IMG/VR virus record: IMGVR_UViG_3300031555_002904
DNA length: 64,000 bases
Source of the DNA: a virus
Taxonomy: Duplodnaviria; Heunggongvirae; Uroviricota; Caudoviricetes
Reading direction: 5' to 3' (one strand)
In this document: piece after piece, positions 2,188 through 57,529 of the stretch
Position numbering within the stretch: position 1 is the first letter of the stretch
Layout of the letters: every line of letters begins with the position of its first letter
Program-made: the position numbers and the translations under genes
The notes under the pieces: generated by a model
The model's input: only the letters and a program-made list of their open reading frames with translations
What the model was told of the DNA's origin: nothing
Databases searched by the model: none

Positions 2188-2421
2188 GCCATGGCTACCA
2201 TTGAAAAATGGCAATCTGGCGAATTAACAAAAGCCCTGTTTAGGGATGTATTTTCCAAAAGTCAAGAAGTAAAATGCTGCGATACTTGCGGCGACGGCAG
2301 AGGTCCGTTTTCAACACGCGGCATTGAAGGAAAATGCTATTGTAAGAGAAGCCGCAAATATGAAAAACCTACACACTACTGTGCAGCTTGGAAGGAGAAG
2401 AGAAAAAATGCCAGTGAATGA
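2188..2421 (+). CDS. small Cys-rich protein
   Basis: In-frame ATG inside ORF 2077-2421; contains CCDTCGDG...CYC. Confidence 0.35.
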   Translation, partial: AMATIEKWQSGELTKALFRDVFSKSQEVKCCDTCGDGRGPFSTRGIEGKCYCKRSRKYEKPTHYCAAWKEKRKNASE

Positions 2422-3214
2422 TGCTCTTGGCACTCGTATGAAAACTTTCTACGAGCAGGTGCCGAAAACCCGTTTGGTGAGACGAATGCCCGTCGCAATT
2501 CGCCTCGACGGTAAAGCCTTCCACACTTTCACTCGTGGCTTCCAAAAGCCTTTCGATAAAGTGCTGGGAAATGCGATGGTAAAAACCATGGAACATCTGT
2601 GTAGAAATATCCAGGGTTGTGTCTTCGGTTACACCCAGTCTGACGAAATCACTCTCCTGTTGATTGACTACCAGACTCTCGATACCAGTGCCTGGTTCGA
2701 TTATGAAGTACAGAAGATGTGTTCTATCTCTGCTTCTATGGCAACCATGGCGTTCAACAAATATTTTGCCGAGGAAGTTGGTACTTGGCGTAGCCGTCAG
2801 TGGAGCGACCCTCGTCACACTGACCCCGAATGGTGGGAGCAGCAGGATAAGCTATATAGTCTTTACTGCGAGAAAGCATCTATTGGTGCTATGTTCGACT
2901 CTCGCGTGTTCAACATTCCCAAAGAGGAAGCCTGTAATCTGATTTACTGGCGCCAGCTTGACGCAACCCGCAACTCCATTCAGATGGTTGGTCAGGCATT
3001 CTTCTCTCACAGTAAGCTCCAGGGTTGCTCTTGTAGCGTAATCCAAGATATGCTCCACGAGCAAAAAGGTATCAACTGGAACGATTTTCCAACTCGTTGG
3101 AAGCGTGGCACTGCCTGGACTCGTGAAACCGGTATTGACTACGATATGCCGATTCTCAAAGGTGAGGACCGCAAATATGTTGATAAAGTAATTTATATAG
3201 AGGAAGGAATGTAA
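2408..3214 (+). CDS. Thg1-like protein (tRNA-His guanylyltransferase family, tRNA 5'-end repair)
   Basis: RBS GGAGAAG; MKTFYE...RLDGKAFHTFTRG...YTQSDEITLLL matches the Thg1/TLP core. Confidence 0.7.
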   Translation: MPVNDALGTRMKTFYEQVPKTRLVRRMPVAIRLDGKAFHTFTRGFQKPFDKVLGNAMVKTMEHLCRNIQGCVFGYTQSDEITLLLIDYQTLDTSAWFDYEVQKMCSISASMATMAFNKYFAEEVGTWRSRQWSDPRHTDPEWWEQQDKLYSLYCEKASIGAMFDSRVFNIPKEEACNLIYWRQLDATRNSIQMVGQAFFSHSKLQGCSCSVIQDMLHEQKGINWNDFPTRWKRGTAWTRETGIDYDMPILKGEDRKYVDKVIYIEEGM

Positions 3215-3694: not shown

Positions 3695-4597
3695 ATGGAA
3701 CAGAATGAAGTTATGATTATGGAAGAAGATGCTCGTGAAATGAACGAGACCTATGATTATGATACCAATGTTGTTCTGGATGGTGTTAAGGCTTATCTAA
3801 AGTCTATTGGCAATCATCCTCGCCTGTCTTTTGACCAGGAGAAGGAACTTTCTGTTAAGGCTCTCGCAGGCGACAGAGATGCGGTAAACACTCTGGTTGA
3901 GTGCAATCTGCTTCTGGTTGTATCTGTTGCGAAGAAGTATTATGGTTGCGGCTTGCCGCTGCTTGACCTCATCCAGGAGGGCAATCTCGGTCTGATTAAG
4001 GCGGCTGAAAAGTACGATGGCTCCAAGGGCTTCCGATTCTCTACCTACGCAACTTACTGGATTCGCCAGGCCATTTCTCGCGCACTGGGCGACCAATCTC
4101 GTACCATTCGTATTCCTGCTAATATGGTTGAACTCCTGTCTAAGGTGAAGAAGGCAACTGCGGAACTCACTCAGAAGCTCGGCAGAGCTCCCTCTGATAA
4201 GGAAATTGCGGCTCATATGGGCGTTGAACTGGACAAGGTCCAGACTGTTATGGACCTGGCACAGGCTACTACCTCTCTCGACACCCCCGTTGATGATGAG
4301 GGTGAAACCTGTATGGGCGACCTAATTGCGGACCACAGTGCAGAGAATCCTATGGCAAATATTATCCGTGAAGCGAACAGTCAGATTATCGCTGCGGTAT
4401 TTGACACTCTGGGCGCTCGTGAAGCTGAAATTCTCAAGATGCGTTTCGGTATTGATGCCGAAAAGGCTATGACTCTTGAGGAAGTTGGTCAGCACTATGG
4501 CCTGTCCAAGGAGCGTATTCGCCAGATTGAAAATAAGGCTATCCGTAAGCTCAGAAATCCTGTTCGTGCGAAGATGCTAAAGGAGGCCATGGCATAA
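3695..4597 (+). CDS. RNA polymerase sigma-70 family factor (regions 1.2 to 4)
   Basis: RBS AGGAGAG; region 2 [20 protein letters not shown]...[13 protein letters not shown]; region 4 ILKMRFGI...TLEEVG...[17 protein letters not shown]. Confidence 0.9.
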
Positions 4598-6092: not shown

Positions 6093-6445
6093 GATATACT
6101 ACCGTTGCTGATTTGATTTCTGCTTTGCAGAAGATGCCCCAGGATGCTCCCGTTTTTAGCTATTCTGAAACCGATGAATGCGATAGTCGTATTGAAGTTG
6201 TGGAATTGTATACGCCTACAAAGGAAGATGAAGACGATTTTGCGACTGCGGTCGCAGAAAACCCCGAATGGCCCTGGATTACTCCCCCTCATGGTTGCCA
6301 GGGAGATTCTTATGTTGCTGACTACTGGAGAGAAAATAAAAAGGTTTCTCCTGTCGTATATGTCAGAGAATCTGTCTGGGAAGATAGAGATAATACAAAA
6401 AATGGAATTAGAAAGGAGAATGTGCTATGCATTGTGGATATGTAA
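6089..6445 (+). CDS. hypothetical protein, paralog of 5811-6092
   Basis: ATG overlaps the upstream stop (ATGA); VADLISALQKMPQDAPVFSY...EVVELY. Confidence 0.5.
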   Translation: MRYTTVADLISALQKMPQDAPVFSYSETDECDSRIEVVELYTPTKEDEDDFATAVAENPEWPWITPPHGCQGDSYVADYWRENKKVSPVVYVRESVWEDRDNTKNGIRKENVLCIVDM

Positions 6446-7845
6446 CTACTTTGAAGGATGTACGTCCCCATCCTAACGCAGATAAGCTGGTTCTGGCAAC
6501 CTGCTTTGTAAATACTGTCTGCGTCGCAAAGGATAAGTACACCGAGGGCGAGATTGGTGTATATTTCCCCGTAGACCTGCAGCTGTCTATGGAGTTTTGT
6601 CAGAAGAACGGTCTTTTGGCTGTATATGAGAACGGAAAGAATGTTTCCGGCGGCTATATGGACCCCGCTAAGAGAAATGTAAAGGCAATTAAGCTGCGTG
6701 GTGAGCAGTCTGATGGTCTGTTCCTACCTTTGTCTTGTCTCGCCTACACTGGCGTAGATATGGACTCCTTGAATATCGGCGACTCCATCACTACTGTGAA
6801 TGGACATGAAATCTGCCGTAAGTACATTCCTCGCAGCAAGCATCAGGCAACTGCGGCCGGCGGTGCTGGTAAGCGCGCAAAGCGTAAGGCAAAGCGCTCT
6901 ATCGCACCTGTGTTCTATGAGCACATTGATACTGAGCAGTTGGCTTACAACCTACATGTGTTTAAGCCTGGTGACTTGATTGAGATTACTCGTAAGCTCC
7001 ACGGAACTTCCGCTCGTACTTCTCATACCAAGGTTTTGAAGGGCTTTAAGCGTACTTTACTGGATATTATCCTGCGTCGTGAGGGCACTCCTATCTACGA
7101 TTGGGGTTATGTATCTGGTACTCGCCGCACTGTTCTGGATACTTTTGATGGTGGTTTCTACGGCTCTAATGAGTTCCGTAAGCCTTATCACGATTTCTTT
7201 GAGGGCAAGTTGCTGAAGGGCGAGACTGTCTACTACGAGATTGTTGGCTTCACTCACGAGGGTCAGCCTATTATGGGCGTATGTAACAACAAGAAGCTGA
7301 ACGATAAGGAGTTCGTAAAGAAGTATGGCGAGACTACTACTTTCTCTTACGGCTGCGCTCCTGGTGTTCAGTACGAACTTGAGTTCAATGAGCAAGGTGA
7401 TGTTGTAAACCGCATCCCCTTCTACCACAAGAACGATATCTATGTATATCGTATGACCATGACTAACGAGGATGGCGAGGTTGTAGAGTACACTCCTGAC
7501 CAGATGCGTCATCGTTGTATGTACATGGGTGTTAAGACCGTTCCTCTGCACTGGTATGGCTTCATTCCCGAGAATCCTGGTTCCAAGGAAGATGACACTA
7601 TCTCTGCCGGTGAATGGGTCTTGAATAAGGCAGAACAGTTCTACGATGGTGAAGAGCCTATTGACCCTACTCACATCCGTGAGGGCGTCGTAGTTCGTGT
7701 AATCAATCGTCCTACTTTCACCGCCTATAAGCACAAGAACTTCCAGTTCAAGGTGCTGGAAGGCATCATCAAGGAGAACGCCGAGGCTCCTGATATGGAG
7801 GAAGCAGATGGACTGGACGAGGATACTGAGGCCGAAACTGTTTGA
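6427..7845 (+). CDS. RNA ligase-like nucleotidyltransferase with N-terminal tRNA-binding (Myf/EMAP OB-fold) domain
   Basis: N-terminus HPNADKL...KAIKLRGEQSDGLFL (tRNA_bind signature); ligase motif I ITRKLHGTS; motifs IV/V EGVVVRV, AYKHKNFQFK. Confidence 0.65.
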   Translation: MHCGYVTTLKDVRPHPNADKLVLATCFVNTVCVAKDKYTEGEIGVYFPVDLQLSMEFCQKNGLLAVYENGKNVSGGYMDPAKRNVKAIKLRGEQSDGLFLPLSCLAYTGVDMDSLNIGDSITTVNGHEICRKYIPRSKHQATAAGGAGKRAKRKAKRSIAPVFYEHIDTEQLAYNLHVFKPGDLIEITRKLHGTSARTSHTKVLKGFKRTLLDIILRREGTPIYDWGYVSGTRRTVLDTFDGGFYGSNEFRKPYHDFFEGKLLKGETVYYEIVGFTHEGQPIMGVCNNKKLNDKEFVKKYGETTTFSYGCAPGVQYELEFNEQGDVVNRIPFYHKNDIYVYRMTMTNEDGEVVEYTPDQMRHRCMYMGVKTVPLHWYGFIPENPGSKEDDTISAGEWVLNKAEQFYDGEEPIDPTHIREGVVVRVINRPTFTAYKHKNFQFKVLEGIIKENAEAPDMEEADGLDEDTEAETV

Positions 7846-26576: not shown

Positions 26577-28910
26577 ATGGCGATTAAAACCTATAAAAAG
26601 GGAACTGCTACTCAATTGAGTACAAATTTTAAATCTACTGAATTTGACTGTCATGGCTCTGGTTGTTGCTCTTCAACTTTAGTTGATGAAAATTTGGTTA
26701 AATATCTCCAAAAAATCAGAAATCATTTTGGTAAATCAGTGCATATCAATAGTGGTTTTAGATGTAAGACCCACAACGCTAATGTTGGTGGCGCATCCAA
26801 GTCCAATCATATGGACGGCGAAGCCGCAGATATTAGAATTGATGGAGTAACCCCATTAGAAATCGCTCAATATGCTGAACATATCGGTATGTTGGGTATC
26901 GGTGTTTATAGCTGGGGTGTTCATGTTGATACTCGTACATCTAAATACTTTTGGTATGATGGTGGCGCAAGTAATGTAAAAACTTTTGGTGGAAGCTTTG
27001 TGGAAGAAGATACCACTCCTACTATTGATACAAGTAAAATTGTAGATAAAGCTGCTGACCCAAAAGTTATTTGGGATTTCTTAAAATCTCAAGGATTAAA
27101 TGATTATGGTATTGCTGGATTAATGGGTAATTTATATGCTGAATCTGGATTAAAACCAACTAATTTACAAAATACTTATGAAAAGAAACTTGGATATACT
27201 GATGCTGAATACACTGCCGCAGTTGACCAAAAAATTTATAAGAATTTCGTAAATGATAGTGCTGGATATGGTCTAGCTCAATGGACTTATTACTCCCGCA
27301 AACAAAATATGTTAACCTTCCATACTAAAAAAGGTAAGTCAATTGGTGATTTAAATACTCAATTAGAGTTTTTAGTTCATGAATTAACTACAAGTTATAA
27401 GAGTTCAGTTTGGGAAGTTCTAAAATCAGCAAAATCTGTTTTAGAAGCATCTAATGCAGTATTGTTGAAGTTTGAGCGTCCTGCTGACCAAAGTACCGCT
27501 GTACAAAATAAACGAGCCTCTTTTGGACAGGGATACTATAATAAATATCATGTTAACGATACTGTTGTGGCTCCAACAGTACCAAGTCAAGGAGGAACTG
27601 GTAAGATGAAATATTCCGCATCTAATAAGCCCCTTGTATGTATGCAGACACAGAGCACTTGCTACAAGGGCACATCTAAAATGACTGTTAAGGGTGTACT
27701 GTGGCACTCTACTGGTGCTAATAATCCTAATTTAAAACGCTATGTTCAGCCAAGCGATAATGCTTCTGACAAAGCAGCCATGTTAAAACTATTAGGAACT
27801 AATACTTATAAAAACGACTGGAACCATGTATCTGTACAAGCAGGATTAAACTGCTGGATTGGTAAATTAGCTGATGGTACAGTAACTACTGTTCAAACTA
27901 TGCCTTGGGATTATAAGCCTTGGGGTTGTGGTTCTGGTTCTCGTGGTTCTTGTAATAATGGTTGGATTCAATTTGAAATTTGTGAAGATAGCTTGACAAG
28001 TAAGGCTTATTTTGAAGAGACTTATAAAGAAGCTTGTGAAATTACTGCTTATCTATGCAAAATGTATGGATTAGACCCAAAAGGCACTGTAAGTTATGCT
28101 GGAGCAACTGTTCCTGTTATTTTATGTCATGCTGATTCTCATAAATTAGGATTGGGTTCTAATCACGGAGATGTATTACATTGGTTTAAGAAATACGGTA
28201 AAACTATGGATGATGTCCGCAATGACGTTGCCGCTTTAATGGGAAGTACTTCTCAAATTACTCCTCCAGAAGAAGAGGATGAGCCAGAAGTAGTAACTCA
28301 GCTATATCGTGTACGTAAGAGTTGGGCTGATGCTAAGTCTCAAATTGGTGCATATACTAAATTAAGTAATGCAAAGGCTGCTTGTGATAAGGCTGGTAAA
28401 GACTATTTTGTATTTGATGGCAATGGTTTTGTTGTTTATCCTGAATCTGCTGTTGTTGTAAAACCAACTCCTGAAACTCCAACTAATACTTTAAAAGTTG
28501 GCGATGCTATTAAGCTGTTGCCTGGTGCAACTTACACTTCTGGTAAAGCAATTCCTAACTGGGTGTTCAAATCTAAATTATATTTGAGAGAAATCCGTGC
28601 TAATACTGGTAGTTATGTATTCTCTACCCAAAAAACAGGTGCCGTAACTGGTGTTGTTGCTCCTAAGTTTGTAGTTCCCTATGACACAGTAATTGAAGGT
28701 ACTAATAGCGGTGGTTCTACTTTTACTCCTTATTTGGTAAAAGTTACTGCTGATGTATTAAATGTCCGCCAGAAGGCAACTACCTCTTCTCCAATTACCA
28801 CTCAGATTAAAAATGGTGGAGTTTTCACTATTGTAGCTGAAGATGGCAAGTGGGGTAAATTAAAGTCTGGCGCAGGCTGGATTCACTTGGATTATACCAA
28901 GAAGCTCTAA
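26577..28910 (+). CDS. multidomain peptidoglycan hydrolase (M15 zinc D,D-peptidase plus lysozyme-like domain plus C-terminal binding region)
   Basis: RBS AAAGGAGAG; SGFRC..HN..VGG...S.H..G.A.D (peptidase M15); GIAGLMGNLYAESG...AQW (phage lysozyme-like). Confidence 0.75.
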   Translation: MAIKTYKKGTATQLSTNFKSTEFDCHGSGCCSSTLVDENLVKYLQKIRNHFGKSVHINSGFRCKTHNANVGGASKSNHMDGEAADIRIDGVTPLEIAQYAEHIGMLGIGVYSWGVHVDTRTSKYFWYDGGASNVKTFGGSFVEEDTTPTIDTSKIVDKAADPKVIWDFLKSQGLNDYGIAGLMGNLYAESGLKPTNLQNTYEKKLGYTDAEYTAAVDQKIYKNFVNDSAGYGLAQWTYYSRKQNMLTFHTKKGKSIGDLNTQLEFLVHELTTSYKSSVWEVLKSAKSVLEASNAVLLKFERPADQSTAVQNKRASFGQGYYNKYHVNDTVVAPTVPSQGGTGKMKYSASNKPLVCMQTQSTCYKGTSKMTVKGVLWHSTGANNPNLKRYVQPSDNASDKAAMLKLLGTNTYKNDWNHVSVQAGLNCWIGKLADGTVTTVQTMPWDYKPWGCGSGSRGSCNNGWIQFEICEDSLTSKAYFEETYKEACEITAYLCKMYGLDPKGTVSYAGATVPVILCHADSHKLGLGSNHGDVLHWFKKYGKTMDDVRNDVAALMGSTSQITPPEEEDEPEVVTQLYRVRKSWADAKSQIGAYTKLSNAKAACDKAGKDYFVFDGNGFVVYPESAVVVKPTPETPTNTLKVGDAIKLLPGATYTSGKAIPNWVFKSKLYLREIRANTGSYVFSTQKTGAVTGVVAPKFVVPYDTVIEGTNSGGSTFTPYLVKVTADVLNVRQKATTSSPITTQIKNGGVFTIVAEDGKWGKLKSGAGWIHLDYTKKL

Positions 28911-38130: not shown

Positions 38131-38159
38131 TTGACAAAAAGAAAAAAATTTTGTATAAT
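38131..38159 (+). promoter_or_regulatory. promoter (TTGACA-17-TATAAT)
   Basis: TTGACA 38131-38136, TGTATAAT ending 38159. Confidence 0.55.
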
Positions 38160-38191: not shown

Positions 38192-38383
38192 ATGAAGAAA
38201 AAAGAACTCAAGAATCTGGCTGTAAAAATCGCTAAGTGCGAACGAATCATTCAAACGAGCGATGATAAGAAAGCCGTTCATCAAGCAGAAGAAGAAATTA
38301 TGCGTCTCTCAAGTTCCGTCGATAGACTGGAAGATATGGTCGCTATTGACGAGCTTGTGATGGAACTGCTTGAGAAAAATTAA
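38192..38383 (+). CDS. hypothetical protein
   Basis: 63 aa helical ORF. Confidence 0.4.
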   Translation: MKKKELKNLAVKIAKCERIIQTSDDKKAVHQAEEEIMRLSSSVDRLEDMVAIDELVMELLEKN

Positions 38384-38392
38384 AAAAAATTC

Positions 38393-38421
38393 TTGACTTT
38401 TCAAAAATTTTTTGATATAAT
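38393..38421 (+). promoter_or_regulatory. promoter (TTGACT-17-TATAAT)
   Basis: TTGACT 38393-38398, TGATATAAT ending 38421. Confidence 0.5.
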
Positions 38422-38492: not shown

Positions 38493-38768
38493 ATGGCTAT
38501 GAAGGAAAATTCCAAGAAGGTTCTGAATTATTTGAAGGAGATTAACGGCGAGAACGTAACTGCTGCTGACGTTGCTGCTGCTCTGGGTCTAGAGAAGCGC
38601 TCTGTTGATGGCATCTTTACTTCCGCTATTCAGCGTAAGGGCTTGGGTGTTCGTACTCCCGCTGAAATCGAGCTAGAGGATGGTACTCACAAGCAGGTTA
38701 AGTTCCTGTCTCTGACTCCTGCAGGCATGAGCTTCGACCCTGACGCAACTGAAGAAGCTGCTGAGTAA
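38493..38768 (+). CDS. small winged-helix-like protein, paralog of 41567-41920
   Basis: RBS AAGGAG; VLNYLKEINGENVTAADVAAALGLEKRSVDGIFTSAIQRKGL parallels ILKFLQEHQETPMWKARDIAEGLFISSRAVSGAMRKLVTDGFV. Confidence 0.5.
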   Translation: MAMKENSKKVLNYLKEINGENVTAADVAAALGLEKRSVDGIFTSAIQRKGLGVRTPAEIELEDGTHKQVKFLSLTPAGMSFDPDATEEAAE

Positions 38769-38784
38769 TTTTGACATATACTAA

Positions 38785-38818
38785 GGGGTAAGATATTAAA
38801 TATCTTACCCCATTTTTC
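38785..38818 (+). terminator. rho-independent terminator
   Basis: ggggtaagata/tttaaa/tatcttacccc then TTTTTCTT. Confidence 0.7.
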
Positions 38819-38824
38819 TTCCAT

Positions 38825-39817
38825 ATGGTGGAATTACTTATTTTTCTAATTTCGTTCATCTTGTCGTCCCTTATTACGGGATATGTTGTATATCGCATTC
38901 TGCGTCCCCGCATTCACGCGGCGCTGGAGTTGGATGCGCAGACTGCCAAAGAGAACGAAAGAATTTAGGAGTAGAATCGTTTAGCCGAAGAGGGCCGCAT
39001 ATGGCTTGAAGCTGAAACTAAACGACTAACAGAAGAAAATAGTAGGTTGTTGCTCCAAAAGGACTCAACCATTGAATAGATTAACACATTAAATAGTAGT
39101 ATTACAGCTATGGAAAAGCAGGCTCAAGAAGCCGCAGATTTATTTTATAGTTCAAAAATGGAAGTCGCTCAAGAAAATCTGGCTCGCTCTTTGGAGCTTG
39201 AAGCATAGAAATATCAAAAGAATGTCGCTTCTTTTGAAGTATAGTATCAAGAAACCGTAGCTGGCTTGATGGAATAGTATAAAGCTCTTGAAGGAAATGT
39301 GGCTATTATGCGTGCTACAAACGATGCCGCAGTTGCCGCAGCCAAGAGAGCAGAAGAAATGAAAGACCAACAAGACTACTATCGCATTTAGCTTTCTGCC
39401 GCAGACCTCCACGAAATTGAGCTTCTGCGTGAGGTAGAACCTTATTTGCGTGATAAAGAACCTTTAAATAAGGTTATTTGGAAATGCTATTATGAAAAAC
39501 CAACGACAGATATGATTGGTAGAGTTATTGGTTCTGGTGTTCATACTGGAATTTATAAAATTACTGAAATCTCTTCTGGAAAATGTTATGTTGGTTAGGC
39601 TGCCAATTTAGCAGACCGCTGGAAATAGCATATTAAACGAGGTGTAGGTGCAGACGCACCCACTCGTAATAAATTATATCCTGCAATGATTGCGGCCGGA
39701 CCCGAGAACTTCACTTTCGAGGTTGTTGAAGAGTGCGACCGTTCCAGACTGGACGAGAGAGAAGATTACTGGCAAGATTATTTTAAAGCAAAAGAGTTTG
39801 GATATAGTATTAAATAA
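38825..39817 (+). CDS. membrane-anchored coiled-coil protein with C-terminal GIY-YIG (T5orf172-like) nuclease domain; 9 in-frame TAG sense codons
   Basis: A 331-codon frame with no TAA or TGA, but TAG at 38966, 38972, 39077, 39206, 39242, 39275, 39389, 39596 and 39626. C-terminus GIYKITEISSGKCYVG-[TAG]-AANLADRWK-[TAG]-HIKRG is the GIY-x10-YIGQ...R..QH signature, with both Q positions encoded by TAG. Confidence 0.75.
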
Positions 39818-39830
39818 AAGGAGTTAATTT

Positions 39831-40103
39831 ATGTATCGTATTATTGATAGCCGTAGTTCCGGCAAGACAAGTAGATTGATGCTTTTGGCAAAGGAAACTA
39901 ATTCCGCAATTGCCTGTATGAATCCACATGCCATGAGAGCAAAAGCTCACGCATATGGCATTACTGGTATTGAATTTATCAGTTATAGTCAGCTCTTTAA
40001 TGGCGAGTACGAAGGTGATGTAATGATTGATGAACTGGAAGTTTTTGTTCAAAATTACATTGATTGTAAATTAACTGGATATAGTTTGTCAAATGAGGAT
40101 TGA
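39831..40103 (+). CDS. small P-loop-like protein
   Basis: RBS AAGGAG; SRSSGKTS degenerate Walker A. Confidence 0.4.
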   Translation: MYRIIDSRSSGKTSRLMLLAKETNSAIACMNPHAMRAKAHAYGITGIEFISYSQLFNGEYEGDVMIDELEVFVQNYIDCKLTGYSLSNED

Positions 40104-56752: not shown

Positions 56753-56981
56753 ACGATATAAGGTAAAAAATATTTATACAACCAGAGCAATTTGTGATAA
56801 GTGCGGTGGGGAGTTAATCCCCACTGGCATTTGTCTCACTACTTATCCAGCACAATATCCTTATAAGTGTGAGAATCCCGATTGCGATGGTCATGCAACA
56901 TTCTGGGAGGGTGAACTTCCCGGCAAATTAGAATACGAATTTGAGGAGGAAGTTGACATATGTACAAAATTATTGCCTTAA
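56736..56981 (+). CDS. small zinc-ribbon protein
   Basis: CDKCGG...CENPDCDGH. Confidence 0.4.
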   Translation: MRKMLKRYKVKNIYTTRAICDKCGGELIPTGICLTTYPAQYPYKCENPDCDGHATFWEGELPGKLEYEFEEEVDICTKLLP

Positions 56982-57529
56982 TGGGCGAAGCTGGGTCTGG
57001 CAAAGACCGTACAATGTAGGCGGTAATAGAAGCCAACCCTGACCTCCATGAAATTATTAGCTGTACCACTCGCCCTATGCGCTAGGGTGAGGCACATGGT
57101 GTCAATTATTTTTATTATACTCCAGAAAAATTTGGATAGAAAGTTCTTGATGGAGAGATGCTAGAGTGTACCGTTTTCAACGACTGGTTCTATGGCACCA
57201 GCTATGACTCCGTCCGCAGCGATGGAGTAATCAATATTGGCGTATTCAATCCCACAGGCGTTGAGTCTCTCTTGGCTCGTCCGGATTGTGATGTAATTGT
57301 CTTTTGGATTCAAACCAATGACAAGATTCGTTTATTGCGCCAGTTAAACAGAGAAGAAGACCCTGACGTTAGAGAAGTTGTAAGACGTTTTTAGGCTGAT
57401 TACAATGATTTTGAAGATATTGATTTTAGTTATATCGGTCTTATCAACAATACTGAAGGCGACTTAGAAGACAACGTCAAGGAGATTTTGGTCCAGAGCG
57501 GACGCAGATTCGCTCAAGGACAAAAGTAA
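56960..57529 (+). CDS. gmk: guanylate kinase with 4 in-frame TAGs (57017, 57083, 57137, 57392)
   Basis: P-loop MGEAGSGKD; TTRPMR-[TAG]-GEAHGVNYFYY matches E. coli TTRQPRPGEVHGEHYFF; FYGTS. Stop is TAA 57527-57529. Confidence 0.75.

Follow-up and report, generated by a model that had tools for sequence, protein, structure and literature searches.

In code-15 phages TAG is read as glutamine in a host that keeps the standard code, the recoded codons occur in a subset of the genes, and the replication genes are largely written in the standard code (bioRxiv 10.1101/2021.08.26.457843; PMC10607447). Late and lysis genes of these phages were proposed to be under the control of stop-codon recoding (Borges et al., bioRxiv 10.1101/2021.08.26.457843). 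The DNA analyzed here, a stretch of 64,000 nt from the Caudoviricetes record IMGVR_UViG_3300031555_002904 of IMG/VR (called the window below), is like these phages in its reading of TAG, in the concentration of recoded codons in a subset of genes, and in its largely standard-code replication genes. Unlike the precedents, its most TAG-dense gene is not a structural or lysis gene; it is a 331-codon gene for a predicted GIY-YIG nuclease that lies in a standard-code replication block. It also exceeds the adjoining tail genes in TAG density, and the bias is kept for this one gene family across lineages, again unlike the precedents.

A protein search of the cultured phages in GenBank with two members of the nuclease family as queries found no full-length look-alike, and phAss-1 alone matched outside the nuclease domain. 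The same collection searched at the nucleotide level with 6 kb around the gene gave short ligase and ThyA matches only. The phAss-1 homolog (OQ749652.1, 7467-8447) is about 25% identical and has 326 codons, eight of them TAG; two tRNA-Sup(CTA) genes (8842-9010) lie about 400 bp downstream of it. GenBank annotates its TAG-free last 144 amino acids (aa) and a small fragment, and the phAss-1 paper (PMC10607447) holds no occurrence of "GIY-YIG" and does not mention the nuclease gene. Two unnamed full-length look-alikes of the protein were present in BFVD, and literature searches for a membrane-anchored GIY-YIG phage protein gave nothing usable.

The nuclease gene ranked first in TAG density among the window's 70 plus-strand open reading frames (ORFs) with 80 codons or more, as an earlier note on this DNA had read from the letters (9 of 331 codons, 2.7%). 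Its density of 27.3 TAG per 1000 codons is about 25 times the 1.08 per 1000 of all other 18,595 codons (binomial p = 1.6e-10). Of its Gln codons 47% are TAG, compared with 3.3% elsewhere in the window, and among the four Gln codons at residues 185-330 three are TAG. The same imbalance was seen in related lineages, with 30 TAG per 1000 codons in the nuclease gene and 0.3 in the flanks of L002, 36 and 0.6 in L003, 36 and 2.3 in L030, and 18.5 and 0.5 in L047. By this measure the nuclease gene was one of the few highest of some 20 genes in every TAG-using locus. In one IMG/VR lineage (L004, L005, L006, and L007) it carries three in-frame TAGs (9.4 per 1000 codons in L004) and is the sole TAG-bearing gene within 20 kb; the 21 flanking genes have no TAG, either as sense codon or as stop (0 in the 5,445 flanking codons of L004). 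This lineage may capture the earliest stage of recoding.

When densities were pooled over the 67 distinct TAG-using loci, the nuclease family reached 19.7 TAG per 1000 codons, with TAG present in 57 of 60 orthologs. Only the tiny gene g63 came close (17.2), and the other families lay far lower: g117 0.5, gyrA 0.6, YorF 0.9, AAA_24 1.8, up91 2.6, DnaB 2.9, dn90 4.3, and YorH 7.6. Since g117 and dn90 have diverged equally and are nevertheless TAG-poor, relaxed constraint alone cannot explain the excess. The excess recurs in lineages that are 25-50% identical, phAss-1 among them. The positions of the TAGs vary between lineages, and in the invariant Gln258 column TAG and CAR switch among close relatives; the TAGs therefore reflect repeated events. 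Within the gene, density was 24.6 per 1000 in the variable stalk, 9.6 in the linker, and 8.0 in the GIY-YIG domain, and no ortholog has a TAG in the transmembrane residues 1-23. Putative tail genes just beyond the right window end, read from a contig that matches the window without a difference for 11,250 nt, have 3.7-13.7 TAG per 1000 codons, so that the nuclease gene is more TAG-laden than the available late genes. This weakens the idea that being simply a late gene is a sufficient explanation. The locus is an unusually clean and conserved case of gene-specific amber loading within a standard-code replication operon.

All nine TAGs stand in one frame of 993 nt that has no in-frame TAA or TGA, and the opposite strand has stops throughout; the proposal of the earlier note that this is a single real gene was borne out. 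If TAG counts as a sense codon, nearly the whole window is plus-strand coding, and most of its genes are without TAG. None of the plus-strand genes in the gene map needs TAG as a terminator, and every TAG-bearing ORF runs on to TAA or TGA, several of them with homology kept across the TAG. The protein database holds hundreds of full-length nuclease orthologs (319-338 aa, 72-98% identity, on contigs of up to 203 kb) and a second subfamily of 287-320 aa that is about 28% identical. DNA of orthologs was taken from 65 IMG/VR loci, 45 loci of the GTDB genome collection (contigs of metagenome-assembled genomes, MAGs), and several metagenome contigs, and the number of TAGs per ortholog ranged from 0 to 12. 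The alignment column of codon 258 has 29 CAA/CAG-Gln and 12 TAG and nothing else, and that of codon 268 has 32 Gln and 6 TAG and nothing else. Because the TAG columns of the catalytic domain are otherwise invariant Gln in the orthologs, TAG is read as Gln. Relatives that use TAG as terminator (L015, L017, and L119) have genes for this same protein that lack internal TAGs.

The ratio of nonsynonymous to synonymous substitution rates (dN/dS) of the window gene against the 88%-identical ortholog of L002 was 0.108, with 0.129 for the transmembrane segment and stalk and 0.081 for the C-terminal half, and three further pairs of orthologs were alike. Purifying selection therefore spans the whole gene, including the portion downstream of the TAGs, and at a dN/dS of 0.11 the gene is not a pseudogene. 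The earlier note had named in-frame TAA or TGA stops in orthologs as a sign of decay, and there were none among about 40 distinct orthologs; three orthologs that seemed truncated are split by an intron-like insert and not decayed. Taken together, the comparative sequence data indicate that the nuclease gene is real, is under selection, and encodes Gln by TAG.

The protein is predicted to consist of an N-terminal transmembrane helix, a helical stalk, a linker domain, and the catalytic domain (Table 1). The C-terminal region matched Pfam PF01541 (E = 3e-9, 37.5 bits against a cut-off of 22.6, residues 242-322) and TIGR01453 (E = 2e-18, 67 bits against a cut-off of 56, residues 241-329), the latter over model positions 2-87 of 215 only. 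The earlier note had called this region GIY-YIG/T5orf172 and had also named DUF4041; the GIY-YIG part stood with significant scores, while T5orf172 and DUF4041 (which we take to be PF10544 and PF13250) gave no Pfam match even at E ≤ 1. Further matches of the catalytic domain were to PHROG 5123, 314, and 7168 and to "HEase" of PADLOC. A profile match was obtained to I-TevI (1mk0/1ln0, E = 1e-10), and Foldseek placed the domain on the I-TevI catalytic domain with a target template modelling score (TM-score) of 0.77-0.80 (0.80 for 1ln0) and a root mean square deviation of 2.2-2.4 Å. The modelled elements (E242-248, E254-259, H262-274, H284-291, E296-303, and H306-319) follow the order β-β-α-α-β-α. 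Residues Y244, Y255, R265, H269, and E313 are invariant in alignments of 16 and 39 sequences and align with the catalytic residues of I-TevI, presumably Y6, Y17, R27, H31, and E75. The GIY-YIG active site is complete by these comparisons, and the protein is a predicted DNA endonuclease.

I-TevI, from the td intron of T4 (PDB 1mk0, 1ln0), shares its fold, its catalytic Tyr, Tyr, Arg, His, and Glu, and 28% identity with the window domain. I-TevI has its catalytic domain at the N-terminus, with a linker and a sequence-specific DNA-binding domain after it, and its gene is a mobile one carried by an intron. The window protein differs in that the domain is C-terminal, after a transmembrane helix, a stalk, and an unrelated linker, and is encoded by a fixed core gene. 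UzuA of the candidate single-gene anti-phage defence "Uzume" (PADLOC PDLC03973/03974; about 280-310 aa) also has GIY-YIG at its extreme C-terminus. The UzuA profile, which has the same length as that of phrog_26160, matched residues 241-327 (E = 1.8e-8, 32 bits) and was aligned only at its positions 184-275 of 278, leaving the transmembrane helix, stalk, and linker unaligned; UzuA is a host defence gene and the window nuclease a phage core gene. T4 endonuclease II (DenA) is a small, soluble, early phage nuclease of GIY-YIG type whose gene lies beside nucleotide-metabolism genes. The searches returned no DenA match. The window gene adjoins ThyA and DHFR, but such adjacency occurs in 14 of 86 loci only.

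The N-terminal transmembrane helix and the long helical region claimed by the earlier note were both recovered. There is a single Kyte-Doolittle peak (KD19 = 2.43, residues 4-22), with a net flank charge of -1 on the N side and +3 on the C side ("RILRPRIH"). The charge pattern is common to 41 orthologs (mean C-flank charge +1.95), and it predicts an N-out/C-in anchor with the rest of the protein in the cytoplasm. The AlphaFold2 model was made for an ortholog (P0001) that is 98% identical to the window protein, with a 39-sequence alignment and a mean predicted local distance difference test score (pLDDT) of 88. It has one unbroken helix at residues 2-179, a two-helix linker domain (192-207 and 212-234), and the β-β-α-α-β-α domain at 242-325. 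The stalk of about 155 residues is probably a dimeric coiled coil. The linker domain at residues 185-240 (consensus FYRL.LS..D..EI..LR…EPLNKVIWK.YYEKP.TDLIGRV.G) matched no Pfam family and is conserved almost as well as the nuclease domain; these two are the most conserved parts of the protein, above the transmembrane helix and stalk. The suggestion of the earlier note that most TAGs of the coiled coil fall at E-x-Q-like heptad positions did not hold as a special placement, since by a crude heptad assignment the TAG-Gln of the stalk (b, d, g, b, g, g) sit at the same sort of positions as CAA/CAG glutamines. With its transmembrane anchor, long stalk, and new linker domain, the protein is a new architectural variant of GIY-YIG nuclease.

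In the region ahead of the gene (Table 1), the T-run of the intrinsic terminator, ATTTTTCTT, ends 3 nt ahead of the nuclease ATG, and neither a promoter-like site nor a Shine-Dalgarno sequence was found between the terminator and the ATG. A hairpin with T-run directly 5' of a mostly Shine-Dalgarno-less ATG was present in nearly all lineages examined, those of standard code included, and the stems differ in sequence across the ortholog loci yet stay complementary. From the terminator and the missing Shine-Dalgarno it follows that the gene would be transcribed by read-through only and is poorly equipped for initiation; as the layout is common to standard-code relatives, it probably predates recoding. 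The earlier note's view that the product depends on amber suppression is supported by the TAG excess across lineages together with this conserved terminator without Shine-Dalgarno. We are highly confident of the identity of the protein, its architecture, and its dependence on suppression, taken jointly.

Table 1. Positions of the nuclease gene, its parts, and the flanking features in the window.
Feature	Position	Strand	Description
Promoter-like site ahead of g63	38131..38159	+	Sigma-70-type, TTGACA-17-TATAAT, 12/12
g63	38192..38383	+	63-aa conserved small gene; syntenic upstream neighbor; TAG-free here, TAG-rich in some lineages
Promoter-like site ahead of up91	38393..38421	+	TTGACT-17-TATAAT with TG, 11/12
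up91	38493..38768	+	91-aa gene; weak winged-helix similarity, acidic C-terminal tail
Intrinsic terminator	38785..38821	+	Predicted; 12-bp stem, 3-nt loop (38785-38811) and T-run
Nuclease gene	38825..39817	+	ATG at 38825, 330 sense codons, TAA at 39815-39817; nine in-frame TAG (codons 48, 50, 85, 128, 140, 151, 189, 258, 268)
Residues 1-23, N-terminal transmembrane helix	38825..38893	+	Predicted from hydropathy and flank charges
Residues 24-184, continuous helical stalk	38894..39376	+	Sequence-variable; TAG codons 48, 50, 85, 128, 140, 151 (6 of 9)
Residues 185-240, two-helix linker domain	39377..39544	+	Family-specific; TAG codon 189
Residues 241-330, GIY-YIG catalytic domain	39545..39814	+	I-TevI-like; TAG codons 258, 268
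dn90	39831..40103	+	90-aa gene, phrog_1828 (unknown function); strong AAGGAG Shine-Dalgarno; syntenic in 50/86 loci

These features can be combined in a model in which the TAGs act as an evolved gate. The N-terminal helix would anchor the stalk and hold the linker and the GIY-YIG domain in the cytoplasm near the membrane. Expression would be throttled by the terminator 3 nt before the ATG, which would leave transcription to read-through, then by the missing Shine-Dalgarno, and, in the TAG-recoded lineages, by the need for a phage suppressor tRNA to compete with host release factor 1 at each UAG and insert Gln. With nine UAGs the yield of full-length protein would follow the ninth power of the suppression efficiency (0.2% at 50%, 39% at 90%, and 91% at 99%), hence a steep threshold. 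Termination at codon 48 would leave a harmless transmembrane peptide of 47 residues with no nuclease, and with such a threshold and such an early stop active nuclease would be confined to cells that already suppress efficiently. Dimerization, a DNA substrate, switch-like behavior, and a biological target are what we infer from these features. Such a threshold would fit, and sharpen, the published proposal that recoding delays dangerous functions (bioRxiv 10.1101/2021.08.26.457843). As a whole, the evolved-gate reading, with a tightly throttled, suppressor-dependent, and predicted membrane-tethered DNase, is one we favor with modest confidence, at somewhat better than an even chance.

Several points weigh against it. 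No suppressor tRNA(CUA) was found in the window, in the 10 kb off either end, or in about 70 related loci besides phAss-1; the scan covered the window and 10 kb on each side, and at least about 75 kb of the genome lies beyond. The scans returned ordinary tRNAs only throughout, and no suppressor near a related methylase locus. The window clade has Ser in place of the Asn (I-TevI N90) that the family usually carries in its C-terminal "GYN" motif. Nuclease activity, DNA substrate, membrane insertion, and oligomeric state are predictions, and the terminator is predicted by consensus and fold alone. The downstream ThyA and DHFR genes would likewise need read-through or an unseen promoter. Finally, the loci share phylogeny and are not independent, so that the pooled counts overstate the sample size.

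The strongest competitor of the gate accepts the same protein and makes its TAG excess permissive. If expression of the gene is always very low and limited to times when the suppressor is there, poorly decoded UAG meets little counter-selection, and CAG>TAG, AAG>TAG, and TTG>TAG changes could drift to mutational equilibrium, mainly in the tolerant stalk. That the terminator and missing Shine-Dalgarno are shared with standard-code relatives, so that low expression came before recoding, speaks for such a neutral origin, as do the greater TAG density in the stalk than in the linker and GIY-YIG domain, the ordinary Gln positions taken by the TAGs, and the similar density of small g63 in some lineages. 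It is harder to reconcile with the equally diverged g117 and dn90 remaining TAG-poor, with TAG making up three of four Gln codons in the conserved C-terminal half, with a density above that of the adjoining putative tail genes, and with the recurrence of the excess in lineages of only 25-50% identity, phAss-1 included. We regard a neutral by-product as the less likely account, though a serious one; weighed together, the gate was given a little more than half of our belief and tolerance under a third.

A transmembrane helix with a coiled coil also recalls i-spanins and some holin regulators. The protein could thus act late, in lysis or at the membrane, as a holin- or spanin-like protein or as a lysis timer, with these two parts as the functional ones. 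Lysis genes and transmembrane proteins are reported to be the most recoded in other clades (Borges et al., bioRxiv 10.1101/2021.08.26.457843). A lysis-timing role had been raised in the earlier note, and the data turned against it. The gene is a fixed member of the replication module and has no lysin beside it, the flank charges place stalk and nuclease in the cytoplasm, and conservation peaks in the nuclease and linker and not in the transmembrane helix or stalk. MAG bins indicate Firmicutes hosts, and these lack the outer membrane on which spanins act. In addition, the window encodes a 777-aa cell-wall hydrolase (26577-28910; Peptidase_M15, lysozyme, Amidase_2, and SH3) 10 kb off that has no TAG at all, contrary to what would be expected if lysis enzymes were recoded most. 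We consider this role improbable.

The catalytic domain is closest to those of I-TevI-type intron and homing endonucleases (TIGR01453, PHROG 5123/314/7168, and PADLOC "HEase"). On this ground the gene might be a selfish, free-standing homing endonuclease, in the replication module by chance and with a codon usage owed to recent transfer from a heavily recoded phage. This is contradicted by its fixed position in 75-80 of 86 loci and in the 28%-identical subfamily, by the C-terminal place of the catalytic domain, by the transmembrane helix and stalk standing where a DNA-binding module would be expected (no NUMOD, IENR1, or helix-turn-helix module was detected), by a TIGR01453 alignment confined to model positions 2-87 of 215, and by the dN/dS of 0.11. 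Moreover, in three lineages the nuclease gene is itself invaded by an insert with a genuine I-TevI-like ORF. A homing identity is very improbable in our judgment.

This insert of 1.23-1.26 kb (L051, ~10742-12007; L053, ~10808-12042; L057, similar position) lies inside the GIY-YIG motif, with the codons for "YIGQAVN(I)" before it and those for "ADRWKQH" after it, where exon 2 continues exactly. Its ORF encodes 298 aa and has in-frame TAGs. In L053 the flanking exon sequence was converted to the donor type, and such co-conversion is a hallmark of homing. Rfam gave no match for the insert at gathering or at E ≤ 1, but at E ≤ 1 it likewise missed the td group I intron of T4 (NC_000866.4, 143300-145700); the negative is therefore uninformative, and such negatives for ORF-bearing group I introns are not to be trusted. 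In its 5′ part the insert has AACGGGGAA…CAATCCCGTG in common with td (local score 47 against 23.4 ± 4.4 for shuffles), and right after the ORF stop it has CGACTATCC…GGGGAGTAGGG in common, which is not significant by score alone. A GACTATC/GATAGTC pairing could form P7. These resemblances make it very probably a td-like group I intron. A 7-nt junction repeat is incompatible with the canonical 5′-exon U plus ωG plus in-frame ligation, and so the splice junction cannot be placed by the U/ωG rule.

Least of all do we credit a pseudogene in decay, or several short standard-code ORFs under a fortuitous long frame: the standard code does break the frame nine times, and the phAss-1 homolog is annotated in GenBank as its C-terminal 144 aa only, but this is ruled out by 993 nt with neither TAA nor TGA, by 0-TAG orthologs that code for this same full-length protein, by TAGs aligned to invariant Gln, by a dN/dS of 0.08-0.13 on either side of the TAGs, and by the clear homologs of other TAG-interrupted window genes (RuvC, guanylate kinase, DHFR, and RecJ).

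The neighbors of the nuclease gene (GyrB, RNase H, GyrA, NAD-ligase, ThyA, DHFR, YorF, AAA_24, YorH, DnaB, RecJ, and Pol III alpha) mark the region as an SPbeta-like replication block by gene content. Synteny was counted over 86 loci. The order gyrA … g63 - up91 - nuclease - (dn90) - g117 - YorF - AAA_24 is kept in 75-80 of them and is identical in the 28%-identical subfamily. ThyA and DHFR stand beside the nuclease in just 14 of the 86, and a nucleotide-salvage link by way of this adjacency was rejected as a conserved feature. The gene up91 is immediately upstream in 75 of 86, with the terminator between the two genes. Its identity is about 90% in relatives whose nuclease is at about 48% and whose neighboring genes are at 45-70%, which puts it among the most conserved genes of the region, and it may be a functional partner or regulator of the nuclease. 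The kept position and the conservation of up91 show that the gene belongs to the fixed core and does not encode a mobile homing endonuclease. On these sequence comparisons the nuclease gene has a set place in the replication module and counts among the core genes of a large clade of uncultured Firmicutes gut phages. The related contigs are of 130-200 kb and were binned with MAGs of Clostridia, Bacilli, and Mollicutes; no integration into a host was seen, the GTDB matches being phage-sized contigs binned in Firmicutes MAGs. Acutalibacteraceae and other Clostridia or Bacilli are candidate hosts. A contig of 158.5 kb (ENA ERZ27248370, k141_3261538) shows no difference from the window in their overlap.

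Other genes of this DNA were recorded in passing. After the nuclease gene, the most TAG-dense genes of the window are those for guanylate kinase (56960-57529; four TAGs, 21 per 1000) and a RuvC-like Holliday-junction resolvase (62198-62683; three TAGs, 19 per 1000). Both abut or overlap upstream genes that are free of TAG, neither has its own promoter, and they suggest gene-specific translational gating inside early operons. Beyond the right window end, at 11195-20471 of L069, the genes turn to the minus strand and include those for a 1,175-aa protein with five TAGs and an 808-aa protein (Laminin_G_3) with three. In the sister contig L068 a standard-code gene caller broke these two genes into six and three pieces. 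The left part of the window encodes a Thg1-like tRNA-His guanylyltransferase homolog, a sigma-70-family factor, and an RNA-ligase-like protein (2408-3214, 3695-4597, and 6427-7845), as well as an 838-aa protein (8588-11104) with a Pfam MVP_shoulder match and a faint Vault_3 match, unusual for a phage. The DNA directly ahead of the window (L071) encodes an EcoRI-type methylase, a GmrSD_N+HNH protein, and tRNA-Cys.

Protein p16.7 of φ29, of about 130 aa, has an N-terminal transmembrane segment, a coiled coil, and a C-terminal DNA-binding domain. It is an integral membrane protein that organizes membrane-associated φ29 DNA replication (PMC4974454). Like the window protein as predicted, it is a membrane-anchored protein of a Firmicute phage in a replication context; unlike it, p16.7 has a DNA-binding instead of a catalytic domain, no sequence similarity was found between the two, and the analogy is of architecture and context only. 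That the nuclease gene is a core gene, is strictly syntenic within the replication block, and is invaded by a homing-type insert suggests that its product functions at the membrane in replication or DNA maturation. Our best guess is that it processes DNA where replication or maturation takes place at the membrane, toward the end of the replication phase, and the main alternative is degradation of host or superinfecting DNA. A late function and host-DNA degradation had both been raised in the earlier note, and either may apply. The choice of a specific target is tentative, with somewhat more than one chance in three of being right.

Recoding as an expression timer is widely cited and has little experimental support at the level of genes. 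The nuclease gene offers a clean test, as one conserved and probably toxic enzyme inside an otherwise standard-code operon, with natural alleles of 0 to 12 TAGs and a second, independent throttle (terminator and no Shine-Dalgarno) in nearly all relatives. Thousands of gut phage contigs carry it as a core gene; its product has an uncharacterized GIY-YIG architecture and is mis-annotated by standard-code pipelines, as in the 144-aa fragment of phAss-1. It is conceivable, though we think it unlikely, that the UAGs were positively selected, repeatedly and independently, as a multi-codon safety catch on a dangerous enzyme, and that the nuclease was among the first genes recoded, because the L004 lineage has no other TAG-bearing gene in 20 kb. 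If so, a polycistronic early transcript would carry the nuclease gene and leave it untranslated until suppressor activity crosses a threshold, and the gene would be a nucleation point for the code change. The nuclease would then also be a previously unrecognized core part of membrane-associated DNA replication or maturation in this clade of gut phages.

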